Of a stretch of 64,000 nucleotides of DNA, positions 1 to 6,000 are shown piece after piece. Positions within the stretch are counted from its first letter, which is position 1, and the number at the start of each line of letters is the position of its first letter. The position numbers were made by a program. Source of the stretch: Deltaproteobacteria bacterium (lineage in GTDB: Bacteria > Myxococcota > JACRCW01); the NCBI GenBank assembly GCA_016218805.1, contig JACRCW010000065.1, forward strand, positions 1-64,000. Reading direction: 5' to 3'.

Positions 1-3000
1 ACGTCGCTGCGCTGCGCTCCGTCGTCGAGGGCCGCCCCCCAAGGGGGGCGGGTACGCATGCACGCAGAGCGTGCATGCAGTTCGGTCGGGGCATTCGTGG
101 AACAGATGCCGGCTCAGACTTGGATCCGCCGCGGAAATGCCGGTTCAAGTCCGGCTGGTCACCCCAGTTTTGTCGTCGTGGTCCCGAACGCCCCTGGTGG
201 GGCGGCCATCCTGTCACGGTGGTGAGGGCGGGTTCGAATCCCCCCGGGATCGTGATGGGTCGCGAGCCGGTCTGGTGATGGCAACCGGTTGAAGCCCGGT
301 CCAACCTGGTTCGATTCCAGGGCGTCCCATGTTTCCGGGCCTGCAGCTCCATGGTGGAGCATCCGCCCTGCAAGCGGAAGGCGAGGGTTCGATTCCCTCC
401 GGGTCCAATTCACGTGGTTTACGGCGTCGGCACGCACGGGTGGGTTGCCTCCCCCCATGTTGGGGGGAGGCCGGCCGATGCGGAGCATCGGCCGGGTGGG
501 GGGAGGCGCCAGCGCGCCGGCCCACGCATGTTCACGCCCGCGAGGCTCAACAGACGAGCGCCCGGCTCCGAACCGGGAGGGTGCAGGTGCAAGTCCTGCC
601 GCGGGTACCAGCGATCTCCCGTCGTTCAACGGACGAGGACACCGGGCGGCGAACCCGGAAATGGAGGTTCGATTCCTCCCGGGAGGAACTTGTTGTTGAC
701 GCGGGTTGGTCCGGCGATCCGGTGGGCCTCATACACCCAACCGAGCGTGGTTCGACTCCACGACCCGCCAATTCAATTCGGCGATATTCGCCGGGCGTGC
801 CGCCTGGGGGCGGCTCCGGTGTCACATACCGGCTCGGCAGGGTTCGATCCCCTGGCCCGGCATTTCACGCAACATGTCCACTGGTAGCCCAACCCTGGTA
901 GAGGCAGCGGTCTCAGAAGCCGTCCAGTGAGGGTTCGAATCCCTCCCGGTGGACCATCTTTCACGTCGTCGTAGCCCAACGTCCGGTAGAGGCAGCAGGT
1001 CGAGAGCCTGCGCAGTGGGGGTTCGACTCCCCCCGGCGACAACCGTGCCCCGGTAGCCCAACGGCAGAGGCAGCAGGCTCAAGTCCTGCACAGTGGGGGT
1101 TCAAATCCCTCGCGGGGCAAATCAACCCATTTCGCACGCAAGTGCGGGAAAGGAGTCCGCGCCATGTTCGCGGAGACGCTTGTGTTGGATCCCGGGTGGA
1201 CCCCGGTAGCCCGCATCAACTGGCAGCGGGCCGTGACGTTGCTGTGGGAAGGCAAGGTGGAGGTGATTGAAGAATACGAAGACCGCGTGGTGCGGAGCAT
1301 GACGCTAGAGATCCAGGTTCCCTCGGTGATCCGGTTCCTGCGCGGGCACATCGGCCGGAAGCGGGCCATCCGGTTCTCGCGGCAGAACGTGTTTGTACGT
1401 GACGGTGGCCGTTGCCAGTACTGCCGCGCGCGGGTGGCGCGGCCGGAGGCCACGTATGACCACGTGGTGCCGCGCGTGATGGGCGGCCGCACGTGCTGGG
1501 AGAACGTGGTGATTGCCTGCATGGCGTGCAACCAGCGCAAGGGTGGGCGCACGCCGGTGCAGGCGCGGATGCGCCTGGGCACCCTGCCGGTGAAGCCGGA
1601 CCGGTTGCCGGGAGGTCCGTCGTATTTCCTGACGTTCCAGCGCGGGATGCCGGAGAGCTGGCGCGCCTACCTGCGGGATGCGGTGGCGTCGCTGCACTAC
1701 TGGAATGACGAGCTGGAGCAGGATGCCTGACGCAGTGTGAAACGCGCGGTGACATCGTCGCTGCGCGCCTGGAGGGTGTGCACGGCGGGGTCGCCGGCGC
1801 CGCCTCGAAAGCGGCGGGGCCGGGTTACCGGTCCGGGGTTCGAGTCCTCCGCCCTCCTTTTGAAGTACCTACGCGGATGGTGAACGGCGTTGGACGCCGG
1901 CCCGGCTGGAACCCGGGTGGACCCCTGGTGGGTCCGGGGTTCGATTCCTCCACCATCCGTCGTCGAGGCGCCGGGAGGCGTTCCTTCGTAAGGGACGAAG
2001 ACGGATGGGCCGCGAGCCCGTCACCGTCAACGCTTTCCAACCGATCCTCGATAGCACCGCGGCGAATCACTGCCGCACCTGGAGAGCACACCGGGCGAGG
2101 CGCCCGGCCGGTCCGCTAAACCGTGAGGCCCGCACGCGGGTCGGGGGTTCGATTCCCCGGTTCTCCGTTCCACGCCATTCCGAGGCGAAGACCAGGGTTC
2201 CTTCGGCTGATACCCCGTAGGTCGCGGGTTCGAATCCCGTCGGGTGCAGCGATGCGCCCGTAGCTCAGTCCGGCAGAGCAACGCACGGTCCCAGGTCATT
2301 CACCATCCTCGGATTTCATCGTCGTCACGGCCCTTCCGGTTCTTACGCGCGAGGTGCGTCATGTCCCGCAAGGCACTGGCAATGTTCGGCGCATCGGCAC
2401 GCTCGGTGTCCGCGCCCATCCGCAACCATGACGGTTACCCGGCCTGGGAGCGCCCGTTGGAGGAGCGCTACCTGCAGGCGCTGCTGTGCAACACGCTGGG
2501 GAACACGTTCTATGCATCCGCGTCCAACCTGCTGGCGGAGACACGTGCTGTGCACGCGGAGATGATGCTGGGGGACACGGCGTTTGCCGCCAAGGCAATC
2601 ATGTACGCGCGCATGCGCGGACTGATGCGCACGCAGCCGGTGTACGGGCTCGCGTCGCTGGCCGGCACGGACCTGGCGCGGTTCCGCGAGGCGTTTGACC
2701 GCGTGGTGCTGACGCCGGCGGACCTGGCGGACTTCACGACGATGGTGAAGGCCCAACGGCGCGGGGAGGGCGGCCGCGCGATCAAGTCCATCGCCGGGCG
2801 GCGGCTGCTGCGTCTGGATGAATACCGGGTGATCAAGTACGGCGCGGAGCGCGCGGACGGCGGGTACGCGCTGCGGGACCTGTTCCGCGTGCACCACCCG
2901 CGCGCGGGGCGCCGGTTGCCGCTGGTGGACTACCTGCTGGGCCGCGCGGATGCGGCGGCGCTGGCGGCTTTGCCGCAAATACGCGCGCTGGAGGACCTCA

Positions 3001-6000
3001 AGCGCGCGACTACGGACGAGGCGAAGGTTGAGGCGATCACGCGCGGGCGCCTGCCGGTCGAGGTGGCGTCGTCGTTCGCGGGATCCTCGCGCGCGGTGTG
3101 GAGCGCGATTGTGCCGCAGCTGCCGATGCTGGCGCTGGTGCGTCACCTGGCCACGCTGGAGCGTCACGGCGTTCTCGACGAGCACCGGGCGTTGCTGGAG
3201 TCGCGCTTCGGGGATGCGCGCGCGGTGCAGCGCAGCCGGGTGCTGCCGTTCCGGTTCCTGGAGGCGTCGCGGCACGTGAAGAGCGCGTGGGCGCGGGACG
3301 CGTTGCGGGACGCGTTGGAGCACGCGTTTGGCGCGGTGCCGTCGCTGCACGGACGGACGGTGGTGTGCCTGGACCGGTCCGGCTCCATGGGCGCGTACAT
3401 CCAGCAAGCGGCCATCTTTGCACTGTGCGCGTTGAAGAAGGCGCGCGGTGATGGGCGGCTGTTGCTGTTTGACGACCGCCTGGACGAGTTGGCGCTGTCA
3501 CTGCGTGACTCCGTGCTCTCCCAGGCGGAGTCCATCCGGGTGCGCGGTGGCACCAACCACACGCTCGCCGTGGATGAGCTGCTGCGCACGCGGGAGCGCG
3601 TGGACTCGCTGGTGTACGTGACGGATGAGCAGCAGAACACGGGCTCGCCGCTGCTGGACCGGTTGGACGTGTACCGGCGGAAGGTGAACGCAGACGTGAA
3701 GGTGTTCATCGTGAACGTGGCGCCGTACGTGCAGTCGGTGGCGCCGCCGCACGAGAAGAAGACGTTCCACGTGTTCGGCTGGTCGGACGCAGTGTTGTCC
3801 TTCCTGGCCATGGCGAGCCGCGGTTTCGGTTCGCTGGTGGACGTGGTGCGCTCCGGCGCGTGGGACGTGGAGGTGAATTGACTGAATTGACGTCCTGGGA
3901 GGGCGAGGCTTCTGCCGAGCCTGGTGAAGACGGGTTGCCGCAGGGCTCGCCGGAGGCTCGCCCTCCCAGGATCTCCGCGGTGGGGTCACGCCAGGCGGCT
4001 GAAGCGGCGGTCACTCTCCGGGAAGTCCACGCCCAGCGCTGCACTCACCAGCACGCCCAGCAGCCCCGCCACCACAAGCCCGTGCCCGTCCCAGTTGGGG
4101 AACGCGGGTGCCGCGGGCCCCGGCACGCACGTCATCAACGCACCGCCCACCACCGTGCCGATGGCGACCCACTGGTACAAGCGCAGGCCGCGGTACTCGG
4201 GCGTCTGCGGCTCGCCGCGCAGTGATTCCTCCACGAACCGTCCGATGCCGGTCATCACCAGGTAGATACCGCAAAGAAACGGCAGCGGGACATGCAGGGA
4301 CCACAGCCGCGCCACGACAAGAAACACGGGTGCGTTCCACAGGATGCTGTACAGCGGTGTTGCGTGGATGGGCACGCCACCCAGCGCGGACAGCCGCACC
4401 ACCCGGGACCGCGGGTGCGTGCAGCGGATGCCCAGCTGTGCCGGCGCTGCGCGGCCGTGACAACAGCCCTGCACCAGGCAGCGGACCCGGCCCCACGCCT
4501 GCACCAGGGGCGCACCGACGGCGTAGGCGCCCAGGATCATCCAGCCGTTGGTCCCCCACAGCGGCGCGGTCACCGCGCCGATCATGATCCCCAGCACGCC
4601 GCCGTAGAAGCCGTACGGCCGCATGAGCTGGTGGCTGCCCTCAATGATCTGCGCCCACGCGCCGGCGGTGAACAGGCCACAGCACGCGGCCCACGCAATG
4701 GCGGGCGCGTGCTCCACGCCCAGCAGCGCGTGCGCGAGCGCAACGGTGAGGAACGTGCCGATGCCGGCGTACGCGCCGTGGTTGATGATCCGCACCGGCC
4801 CAAACCGCCATTCGTGCCAGCTGTTGGCGACGCGCTCCGTGGTGGCGCGTAACAACTCCCAAACGGATGGGTAGCGGATGATGGCCGCGCCCACCGCCAC
4901 GCCTGCGAGAATGTCCGCGACGGTGTGCATCCCCGTGAGCGAGCAAGCCGCGGCGACCGCGGCGGCCCACGCCCACGCGAGCCACGCGAACGCACGCGGG
5001 AGGGCGGCGGCGCAGAGCATGGCCCAGACGACGTGGAAGGACGGGAACGCGGCGGCGGGGCTGTCCCACGCGCGCTCCATGGCAAGCAACCCGCCCAGCG
5101 GATCATTGACGTTGAACGGGCGCGGGACCGCGCAGACGGGGAGCGCGAGGTGCAGGGGAAACACCACTGCCATGGCAATCCACCCACGGAGTTGGAACGC
5201 GCGCAGGTCGCCGCGGGTCCGCACCAGCCACGGGGTTGCCAGCGCGACGACGTACGCGCTCGCGTACACGGGTTCCGCCCACGCGAACACGGGCCACGCG
5301 GCTTCGCCCGGGAGCGCAAGCATCACGGCGTCCGGCGCAGGGCCCAGCGCAACGATGAGTTCATACGCGGCCAGCCACGGCAGCAATACGTTGATCCACA
5401 TGGCGGCGCGCTCCCTGGCGGCCAGCGGCGCGGCACCGGGCGCAAGCGGTGCCAACAGCGGTGCGGCGGGCAGCGGGAGGCGCCCGCGTTCCCATCCCCA
5501 CACCAGCGCGGCCGACGCGGCAGCGAGCACGGGCGTGACCAGGTAGAGCCCCGCGCTGGACCGCGCCAGGATGCTGCCTCCGCCGACGAGAAACACCGCA
5601 CCGGCATGGAGCGGATGAGCCACTGCGCCGGGGCGCAGCGCCCACAGCAACGCGCCGGCAATCACCGCAACGGCGCCGGCCGCATCGGGCAGCGGGATGG
5701 GCAGGTGGACCACGCCGGGGACCGCCAGTGCCCAGGCCGCGCACCCGGCCACGGACAGCGCGGACAGCAGGAGCGTGCGCATCACGGCCATCGGACCACC
5801 TCGTGAATGGTCCAGCCGTGGGACTCCGCCTTTCCCGCCCGCTGCAGCCGCGAGCGCGAGAGCCACTTGGTCTCGTCAATGAGCAGGGTCCGACCGGGTA
5901 AGATCTGCAAAACGCGCCGGGGCAGCAGCGACAGCGCAGAGAAGCCGAGCTGTCCCTGGCGCAACAACTCGGTCAAATCAAAACGGAGGTTGACGGTGGG

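Follow-up and report, generated by a model that had tools for sequence, protein, structure and literature searches.

A Myxococcota tRNA array with an HNH nuclease gene, two Y RNAs and a Ro60 gene, and its probable control by a ribosome-dependent leader switch

The closest described counterpart of the locus analyzed here is the trn operon of Anabaena sp. PCC 7120, a long, same-strand array of redundant tRNA genes (an L-array) with a linked HNH gene. The Anabaena array and its HNH gene are induced by ribosome antibiotics, and RNA-repair genes lie nearby in relatives (PMC8421152). Control there is exerted through promoter repeats and the repressor TrcR (PMC10272220). Another type of control is known for whiB7, in which full translation of an upstream ORF leads to a terminator, and ribosome stalling leads to an antiterminator and read-through (PMC10274678). 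In addition, HNH is the most frequent gene in mycobacterial and phage tRNA array units (PMC5966550), tRNA gene clusters whose tRNA-Ser combine an acceptor stem of 8 bp with a T stem of 4 bp ("8/4") are known from phages, proteobacteria and Clostridia (PMC5389517), and bacterial Ro60 (Rsr) genes adjoin same-strand Y RNAs of two kinds, YrlA with T, AS and D arms and YrlB without them (PMC4201824, PMC12135203). The main text of PMC8421152 makes no mention of attenuation, Ro60, TROVE or Y RNA, that of PMC5966550 does not name TROVE or Ro60, and the available text of PMC5389517 does not mention myxobacteria, HNH or Y RNA in connection with 8/4 tRNA-Ser.

We analyzed a window of 64,000 nucleotides at the start of a Myxococcota contig (C19), whose first 4 kb combine elements of all these systems (Table 1). 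We consider it probable that this block makes up the 3′ half of a tRNA L-array operon which is located on the chromosome, belongs to a family widespread in Myxococcota and is normally kept off by ribosome-dependent transcription attenuation. It shares with the trn operon the long run of redundant same-strand tRNAs and the linked HNH gene, and our best reading is that it resembles that operon with an attenuator in place of TrcR and with a Ro/Y RNA module added. As far as the available text on trn-type L-arrays goes, these are sporadic, whereas the myxobacterial arrays are common and syntenic. The likeness to whiB7 would be one of mechanism, in that the end of the leader ORF overlaps the antiterminator strand, but whiB7 attenuation gates an actinobacterial transcription factor, whereas here tRNAs, HNH, Y RNAs and Ro would be gated. 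Unlike in the mycobacterial and phage units, as far as these are described in the available text, HNH here is conserved and keeps a fixed position.

Table 1. Features in the first 4 kb of the window.
Feature	Position	Strand	Evidence
Host interspersed repeat	10..133	.	37 blastn matches on 23 contigs, 15 over 60% of repeat length
tRNA-His, 3′ remnant (T arm, acceptor 3′ strand, CCA)	134..166	+	Matches 3′ part of His(GTG)
tRNA-Asp(GTC), single C-C mismatch in T stem	180..252 (about)	+	72% identity to Asp of L318
tRNA-Phe(GAA), acceptor-stem U-U mismatch	256..330	+	ARAGORN
tRNA-Ala(TGC), G3:U70 and A73 retained	337..407	+	Read from sequence
Second host repeat, in spacer	441..520	.	26 matches on 19 contigs
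tRNA-Arg(CCG), Arg(GCG), Met(CAT, weak D arm), Val(CAC)	536..862	+	ARAGORN
Three short-variable-arm tRNA-Leu (CAG, GAG, CAA)	878..1120	+	ARAGORN
HNH nuclease, 188 aa	1164..1730	+	Pfam HNH_5, E 7e-14
tRNA-Ser(CGA) and Ser(GGA), 8/4 acceptor/T-stem fold	1771..1959	+	ARAGORN drawings
Second Y-like RNA, no tRNA domain (YrlB-like)	1963..2051	+	5′ and 3′ handle common to 2180-2312; fold z -2.9
tRNA-Ser(GCT), 8/4 fold	2080..2168	+	ARAGORN
YrlA-type Y RNA, full length (terminal helix and inner stem, followed by T, AS and D arms)	2180..2312	+	Rfam RF02553 on core; fold; alignment of 22; covariation
Ro60/Rsr, TROVE ring and vWA, 506 aa	2361..3881	+	Pfam
Host palindromic repeat directly after Ro	3890..3970	.	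43 short matches on 24 contigs

A preliminary description had counted at least 13 tRNAs, one of them without an assigned anticodon. ARAGORN returns 12 from 256 to 2168, their anticodons agreeing with that description, and the remaining one, not called by ARAGORN at default settings, is tRNA-Asp(GTC), which makes 13 in the window. These 13, to which four whole and two cut genes add, form a long, closely spaced, same-strand run that comes on top of the housekeeping tRNA set and has diverged from it. As had been stated, most anticodons recur: ten of the 13 are present elsewhere in the assembly, which represents a genome 92% complete, at only 43-63% identity, and no second copy of Asp GTC, Ala TGC or Val CAC was found in it. 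Identity to the array of a sister genus (L318/L319) is 72-86% over full length; tRNA-Phe(GAA), for example, is 77% identical to the L318 copy versus 43% to the housekeeping one, and tRNA-His(GTG) precedes Asp-Phe in L318. The G3:U70 and A73 retained in tRNA-Ala(TGC) are identity elements. The reported lack of a long variable arm in tRNA-Leu is confirmed by lengths of 75-79 nt, against 81-86 nt for the genome's five other tRNA-Leu. These genes are 79-86% identical to those of L319, and 13 of 14 tRNA-Leu in the compared arrays of relatives likewise measure 74-78 nt. All three tRNA-Ser are drawn by ARAGORN in the 8/4 form of the described clusters.

The block had been called phage-type, and several observations fit a phage or prophage remnant. 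Its short-arm tRNA-Leu are 80% like those of mycobacteriophages, its HNH gene has 73% DNA identity over 185 nt to a 197-kb virus, 8/4 tRNA-Ser are known in phages, and members of its Ro clade occur on 10 viral contigs, two of them with 5-9 tRNAs. The quoted phage matches are real, but each covers only 8% of the region, and among viral HNH proteins none above 46% identity turned up. Moreover, the array is most closely related to chromosomal arrays in other Myxococcota, some of them on whole chromosomes of 9-13 Mb; ordinary host genes flank the array on both sides, and host repeats lie inside it. GC content (66-71%) and GC3 (0.87-0.90) are host-like, the tetranucleotide distance of Ro falls at the 69th percentile of genome windows, and a scan of the nearest flanking genes found neither phage genes nor phage-nearest relatives. 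A remnant is hence very improbable and this reading largely refuted, while the array family may have had an ancient phage origin. The HNH call itself stands: the frame is intact including the catalytic residues, four Zn-type Cys and H100/N114/N123 are invariant in an alignment of 10, and the protein is 72% identical to that of the sister genus (uncorrected pS 0.50, pN 0.19).

The upstream half of the array lies most likely at the end of another contig, C103, where a 52-codon leader ORF precedes tRNAs for Trp, Thr, Gly and Gln and a cut tRNA-Lys. The two contigs are unjoined in the assembly, in which the middle part of the array was not found, and the link is one of synteny: leader and tRNA order are common to C103/C19 and L318/L319. 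A leader of the same type stands on a single contig in L005, followed by Trp-Thr-Gly...Asp-Phe-Ala-Arg...HNH-Ser-Y RNA-Ro. The order of tRNAs, HNH, Y RNA and Ro is repeated on single contigs in L005/L085, L170, L176 and L165, in agreement with the earlier proposal that they form one module. Relatives' arrays range up to 29-38 tRNAs, and some have shrunk to 1-5.

In the C103 leader, the last bases of the ORF complement the 5′ arm of a hairpin that is rich in GC and carries a U-rich tail. Among 40 HNH loci fetched for spread, a terminator motif lies upstream in 19 of the 27 with tRNAs and in none of the 13 without; the strict pattern misses it in the other eight tRNA-bearing loci, of which two begin at a contig edge and one has a variant visible by eye. 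In 14 of 23 leaders (2.0 expected), the stop of an ORF of at least 30 codons falls on the best antiterminator site; in nine it does not. When loci are picked by the terminator pattern instead, all 14 show an ORF of 43-52 codons whose stop lies 36-37 nt upstream, and tRNAs follow in 13. The loci counted here and below are related and include duplicates, and the counts are therefore not independent. The free G000 leader is predicted to adopt the antiterminator fold (-47.3 kcal/mol, z -3.2), and the terminator fold once the ORF end is removed; a consensus scan of this leader called neither promoter nor terminator. For both L005 and L008, minimum-energy folding of the full length gives the terminator, so that switching would require co-transcriptional folding. 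We propose that a ribosome at the leader stop codon would mask the complementary strand, allowing the terminator to form and transcription to end, and that a stalled or slow ribosome would leave this strand free for the antiterminator, so that transcription would continue into the spare tRNAs, HNH, both Y RNAs and Ro.

It is conceivable, though distinctly unlikely, that the leader is instead an ordinary terminator or a switch that does not sense ribosomes, with induction driven from the promoter as by TrcR in Anabaena. Such control would fit the known repression of the Anabaena array (PMC10272220), the little sequence that the leader peptides have in common, and the 114-fold increase of the HNH gene MXAN_1486 in an asgB mutant of Myxococcus xanthus. 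It fits poorly with a stop codon that keeps its place directly after the complementary stretch from genus to genus, in ORFs of about 33-70 codons.

Support for the earlier link of the module to translation stress, and thus for attenuation by ribosomes, comes from M. xanthus. In M. xanthus AM003 the locus consists of a leader, Tyr, five further tRNAs, HNH, Ser and a CxxCH protein, and MXAN_1485 is a putative cytochrome c. In RNA-seq with chloramphenicol, MXAN_1486 reached a log2FC of 8.09 and tRNA-Tyr MXAN_1491 one of 5.28, the two values coming from different conditions (PMC6617876). These two, the HNH gene and the first tRNA gene of that locus, probably belong to an orthologous array, and their response suggests that the signal is ribosome stalling; anticodon nucleases, named as an example in the preliminary description, are a hypothetical trigger. 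Of the four induced tRNAs listed, three come from a locus other than the array, and the authors read the induction as DNA damage and fast growth (PMC6617876).

Within the array's 3′ end, the YrlA match previously placed at 2216-2287 is reproduced (43.2 bits, model positions 23-89), with T, AS and D stem-loops in the permuted order of YrlA. It had been regarded as partial, but the RNA extends over the whole interval in Table 1; its ends fail to align to RF02553, and the score stays below the gathering value of 69 bits. We class it as a YrlA-like variant. It lies 48 nt upstream of Ro on the same strand, within the 4 kb used as the limit. The second Y-like RNA, absent from the preliminary description, sits between two tRNA-Ser genes; the genome has two convincing copies, of which it is one. 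One RNA with the three arms and one without recalls the YrlA/YrlB pair. However, as compared with bacterial Ro60 systems in the available literature, the handle is clade-specific, GAGGCG...GGGTTACTTC / TCCTC, and within the window the GNCGAAN0-1G motif near the 5′ end is retained in the YrlA-type RNA but not in the one at 1963-2051; most clade members lack it too, GNCG alone being invariant there. The handle motif occurs at most 1.5 kb upstream of Ro at 129 of 148 loci, never on the minus strand, and at 2 of 119 control loci, and its terminal pairs are kept in 213 and 217 of 230 cases (147 and 101 expected). Because the two co-occur, we infer that Ro binds these Y RNAs; by analogy with known Ro biology, it would do so via the shared handle and would help to clear or repair damaged structured RNA in the same stress.

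The TROVE/vWA frame reported earlier is full length according to Pfam. Its MIDAS is intact (D338-S340-S342, T398 and D422, invariant in 25 sequences), profiles match human, Xenopus, Deinococcus and phage phiLo Ro60 over 450+ positions, and a model (pLDDT 84) reaches TM 0.67-0.74 to Ro60 structures. With this fold and its adjacent same-strand Y RNAs the gene resembles known bacterial Ro60, but it is embedded in a tRNA operon with no RtcR or RtcB adjoining; three RtcB matches all lie on other contigs. Its clade is separate from the usual myxobacterial Ros, and the control offered previously, that other myxobacterial Ro loci lack tRNAs, drew on a clade other than this one. Among clade loci with 3 kb of flank, 34 of 119 have at least three tRNAs and most have fewer. 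Two Cohnella loci that we scanned run from a tRNA cluster through Y RNA and Ro to RtcB, one of them also with RlaP.

The Ro/Y RNA cassette is an accessory joined to the 3′ end in a minority of arrays, and Ro was found next to HNH in none of the 40 fetched myxobacterial loci, which counts against our reading of the module. It might even be a passenger that uses the array transcript without acting on array tRNAs, which we regard as rather unlikely. No Ro lies within 8 kb of the sister-genus array end. Further, the clade was found in one of 401 phylum genomes (16 others match with far lower scores), its affinity is with Bacillota and unassigned Ros, and many members have Y RNAs but no tRNAs. Against a mere passenger, Ro follows tRNA clusters in several clade branches, and a Y-like RNA stands inside the array itself. 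Tentatively, and going beyond attenuation as such, we suggest a ribosome-gauged rescue operon of myxobacteria, whose leader ORF would sense whether ribosomes finish translating and, if they do not, release odd spare tRNAs (short-arm Leu, 8/4 Ser) together with a conserved HNH that would serve the host as an RNA- or stress-nuclease and not in homing. Some lineages would add a Ro60 clade that has a Y-RNA handle of its own and would police those tRNAs. Such an operon could explain the overlooked, top-induced chloramphenicol genes of M. xanthus. If so, cryptic tRNA arrays gain a second, protein-free control logic, attenuation rather than TrcR, and Ro60/Y RNA becomes tied to translation stress, not to an RtcR/tRNA-fragment signal. 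The function of L-array and HNH becomes testable in a model organism, as M. xanthus has a probable orthologous locus, and the Ro clade defined here has Y RNAs that score below the Rfam cut-off.

Even if the family works as proposed, this copy may be partly or wholly silent because it is punctured by an IS and repeats. A multicopy IS element (depth 26 to 165) interrupts the anticodon loop of the C103 tRNA-Lys, and no contig without this insertion was seen; the first repeat in Table 1 cuts tRNA-His and ends the contig, and another occupies a spacer. Phe, Asp, Met and Leu(GAG) carry stem mismatches, which are missing from the sister-genus Phe, Asp and Leu, a consensus scan of window positions 1-4100 matched no promoter, and arrays of relatives have been whittled down. 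A decaying relic, with the part in the window cut off from its leader, is therefore a serious possibility, although not the reading we would choose. Evidence for continued function comes from the intact HNH and Ro frames with their catalytic and MIDAS residues, the paired ends retained in both Y RNAs, and a leader switch that folding predicts to be intact. Beyond the palindromic repeat that follows Ro, the ORF list places a gene oriented opposite to the array.

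The preliminary description had taken this block for a phage-type module. Our comparisons place it on the chromosome instead, as the nearest layouts are chromosomal, the flanks hold host genes and the phage matches are short. The order ...Val, Leu, HNH, Ser recurs in whole chromosomes of 9-13 Mb, and the sister genus carries 24 + 8 tRNAs in nearly identical order, with 72-86% identity to the window orthologues; housekeeping tRNA copies of the studied genome share 43-63% identity with the window tRNAs. The neighbours encode LGT/PAP2, an OPT transporter, an M50 peptidase, SLT and YceG, each phage match spans just 8% of the region, and the best viral HNH found stands at 46%.

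Other parts of that description held up. The array does comprise at least 13 packed tRNA genes, namely 12 called by ARAGORN plus an Asp(GTC), the HNH gene inside it is upheld by Pfam, and all three tRNA-Leu of the window lack the long variable arm, which is also missing in 13 of the 14 tRNA-Leu compared from relatives' arrays. ARAGORN folds all three window tRNA-Ser with an 8-bp acceptor and a 4-bp T stem, an 8/4 class already described in PMC5389517, and several window tRNAs have stem mismatches. Extra low-threshold ARAGORN calls within HNH, Ro and a repeat were dismissed as chance. In L319 (positions 1150-2320), a sister-genus locus, a stretch of mirror-repeat DNA about 1.2 kb long lies between HNH and the tRNA-Ser genes.

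Features of the window and of contig C103, with locations (window positions unless a contig is named)
Feature	Location	Remark
tRNA-Asp(GTC)	about 180-252	
12 tRNAs (ARAGORN)	256-2168 (+)	
HNH gene	1164-1730	
Y-like RNA without T, AS and D arms	1963-2051	between two tRNA-Ser genes
Y RNA with T, AS and D arms	2180-2312	
Ro gene	2361-3881 (+)	
Membrane protein, 626 aa	3986-5866 (-)	PAP2 and LGT domains fused
Host repeats	10-133, 441-520, 3890-3970	occur on 19-24 contigs of the genome
Leader ORF with terminator/antiterminator	C103:16782-17010 (L004:4783-5012)	sole match to its terminator motif in the genome
End of IS-like element	C103:17583-17702	

The final kilobase of C103 carries Trp(CCA), Thr(CGT), Gly(GCC), Gln(TTG) and half of a Lys(CTT). 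Because Trp-Thr-Gly also opens relatives' arrays, and because L005, a locus from a Polyangia MAG, has leader, 15 tRNAs, HNH, Y RNA and Ro all on a single contig, synteny suggests that the tRNAs at the end of C103 and those of the window would form one array in this genome. Contigs overlaid on the C103 end gave no piece linking it to the window and no IS-free version, and sensitive blastn with the arrays of three relatives as queries detected no array middle in the assembly. The tRNA-Lys is split in its anticodon loop, at a TA, by the end of a multicopy IS-like element, which recurs at the starts of C121 and C52 and has about six times the depth. Judging by its TA target, the element may be IS630-like; DDE_3 had no match anywhere in the assembly. 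The tRNA-His is likewise interrupted, by the repeat at 10-133, and such insertions may have disabled the operon in this genome. A sequence of ~130 nt common to the starts of C36, C44, C135, C145 and C155 and the end of C159, read by ARAGORN as a pseudo-tRNA-Arg, is probably another multicopy element.

Upstream of the Trp gene on C103, a 52-codon ORF is followed by a GC-rich hairpin that ends in a U-rich tail; a -35-like TTGACG, present in the sister genus too, also lies upstream, and a consensus scan did not call it. The last codons of the ORF are complementary to the 5' arm of the hairpin. The free leader RNA is predicted to fold into this antiterminator, and removal of the ORF end to yield the terminator. 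Among 40 HNH-family loci chosen to cover a range of taxa, the terminator motif precedes 19 of the 27 with tRNAs and none of the 13 without. In 14 of 23 leaders (2.0 expected), the upstream site that pairs best coincides with the stop of a long ORF. When loci were sought by terminator pattern, 14 named ones came up; each has an ORF of 43-52 codons whose stop lies 36-37 nt upstream, and tRNAs follow the leader in 13. The leader loci are kin, and these sets overlap. Since the leader peptides vary widely in sequence, it is the reading frame and stop position that are conserved, rather than the peptide. The uORF attenuator of whiB7 works by the same logic (PMC10274678). Several Myxococcus-type genomes carry 2-3 leader copies before separate sub-arrays (L350/L351/L359, L355/L360, L356/L357, L352/L358), with no tRNAs behind copy L352.

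The M. xanthus AM003 locus runs leader, Tyr, Ile, Lys, Gln, Ala, Leu, HNH, Ser, CxxCH protein. This order, with Tyr first, an HNH gene and a CxxCH protein, fits MXAN_1491-1486 and MXAN_1485, a putative cytochrome c according to PMC3986340, and the two loci are therefore presumably orthologous. According to PMC6617876, chloramphenicol raises the HNH gene MXAN_1486 in the dormant phase (log2FC 8.09) and the tRNA-Tyr MXAN_1491 in adapted cells (log2FC 5.28), and its authors class the MXAN_1486/MXAN_1491 rises under DNA damage and fast growth. Table S6 of that paper contains a second chloramphenicol-induced tRNA cluster, MXAN_0380, 0381 and 0388 (Gly, Leu, Arg). The same drugs also act on the L-array of Anabaena (a long same-strand array of redundant tRNAs) and on the HNH gene linked to it (PMC8421152); this response is via TrcR (PMC10272220), whereas we propose a leader ORF attenuator for the myxobacterial array. 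HNH matches at E<=1e-30 were found in 245 of the 401 genomes of the phylum; many reach just ~1e-31 and may represent a paralogue. The retention of HNH, and mostly of the leader, in arrays that have shrunk to 1-2 tRNAs (loci L285-L287 and L316) suggests that HNH itself is a regulated product.

The gene called TROVE/vWA (Ro60) earlier is confirmed by Pfam, and its product is a full-length Ro60 with an intact MIDAS. The nearest relatives of this protein are 50-60% identical and make up a clade with Bacillota and unassigned Ros (SH-aLRT 98, in a quick, midpoint-rooted tree with SH-aLRT only, on the 65 of 178 sequences left after 72% clustering). A single-sequence search of the genome contigs with Ro gave no match, whereas an alignment-based search did.

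The YrlA match noted upstream of Ro was reproduced in its core. Y RNAs of the clade have in common GAGGCG, GGGTTACTTC and a 3' TCCTC, with an inner stem that varies. Their paired-end motif, or handle, of which the window has two copies (1963-2051 and 2180-2312), occurs in the 1.5 kb before Ro at 129 of 148 clade loci (minus strand, 0; control loci, 2 of 119), a count that includes duplicates and many Paenibacillaceae and is partly circular, as the motif was read from 13 of those loci. The outer two handle pairs covary, being paired in 213/230 and 217/230. An initial T-loop/D-loop pattern overlooked several Y RNAs and matched tRNA pairs, and the handle was used instead; its third match in the genome, on C151, resembles coding sequence and was set aside. 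TTAC may be the YUAY of PMC4201824, in which case this Y RNA would be a YrlA variant.

The usual myxobacterial Ros fall outside this clade, and their 16 loci have neither tRNA nor handle within a flank of ~1.5 kb. Where 3 kb of flank was available (119 clade loci), at least three same-strand tRNAs are present at 34 loci and at least ten at 4; HNH, tRNAs and Ro stand together again in L085, L165, L170 and L176. Ro adjoined 0 of the 40 fetched HNH loci, and the Ro/Y RNA cassette is thus an accessory of the arrays. In L176, a 38-tRNA array lies 2.8 kb upstream of Ro, and ARAGORN reads anticodon TTA (stop) in one gene and His(ATG) in another. RtcB has three matches in the genome (C54, C139, C72), none beside the window Ro, and Rfam detected no Y RNA near these three loci.

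Beyond the anatomy, its conservation, the two alternative folds predicted for the leader, the Ro fold and the handle covariation, all shown here, we propose that the leader would switch array transcription in a ribosome-dependent manner, that transcription may run from leader through array to Ro, and that Ro would bind the Y RNAs and may act on the array's tRNAs. The locus is most likely a translation-stress operon, which would provide spare tRNAs together with an RNA quality-control particle upon ribosome stalling. Three of its elements were known separately: the L-array with HNH, the pairing of Ro and Y RNA, and the uORF attenuator. Our literature search, which lay outside subscription papers and the supplements of PMC8421152 and PMC4201824 (myxobacterial L-arrays or similar Y RNAs may be listed there), found no report of the three combined, of an attenuator ahead of a tRNA array or of Ro/Y RNA within such an array. 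This analysis contributes a leader census across the phylum, the handle of the Y RNAs and the tie to the M. xanthus chloramphenicol data.

Five loci of Cohnella and Gorillibacterium (L096, L098, L113, L091, L105) show apparent tandem leader-ORF/terminator units 600 nt upstream of tRNA-His, judged by eye with one ORF confirmed by script. Behind these units come His-Gln-Glu...Trp clusters, Y RNAs and Ro, and in the two loci scanned, RtcB (and RlaP) is next.
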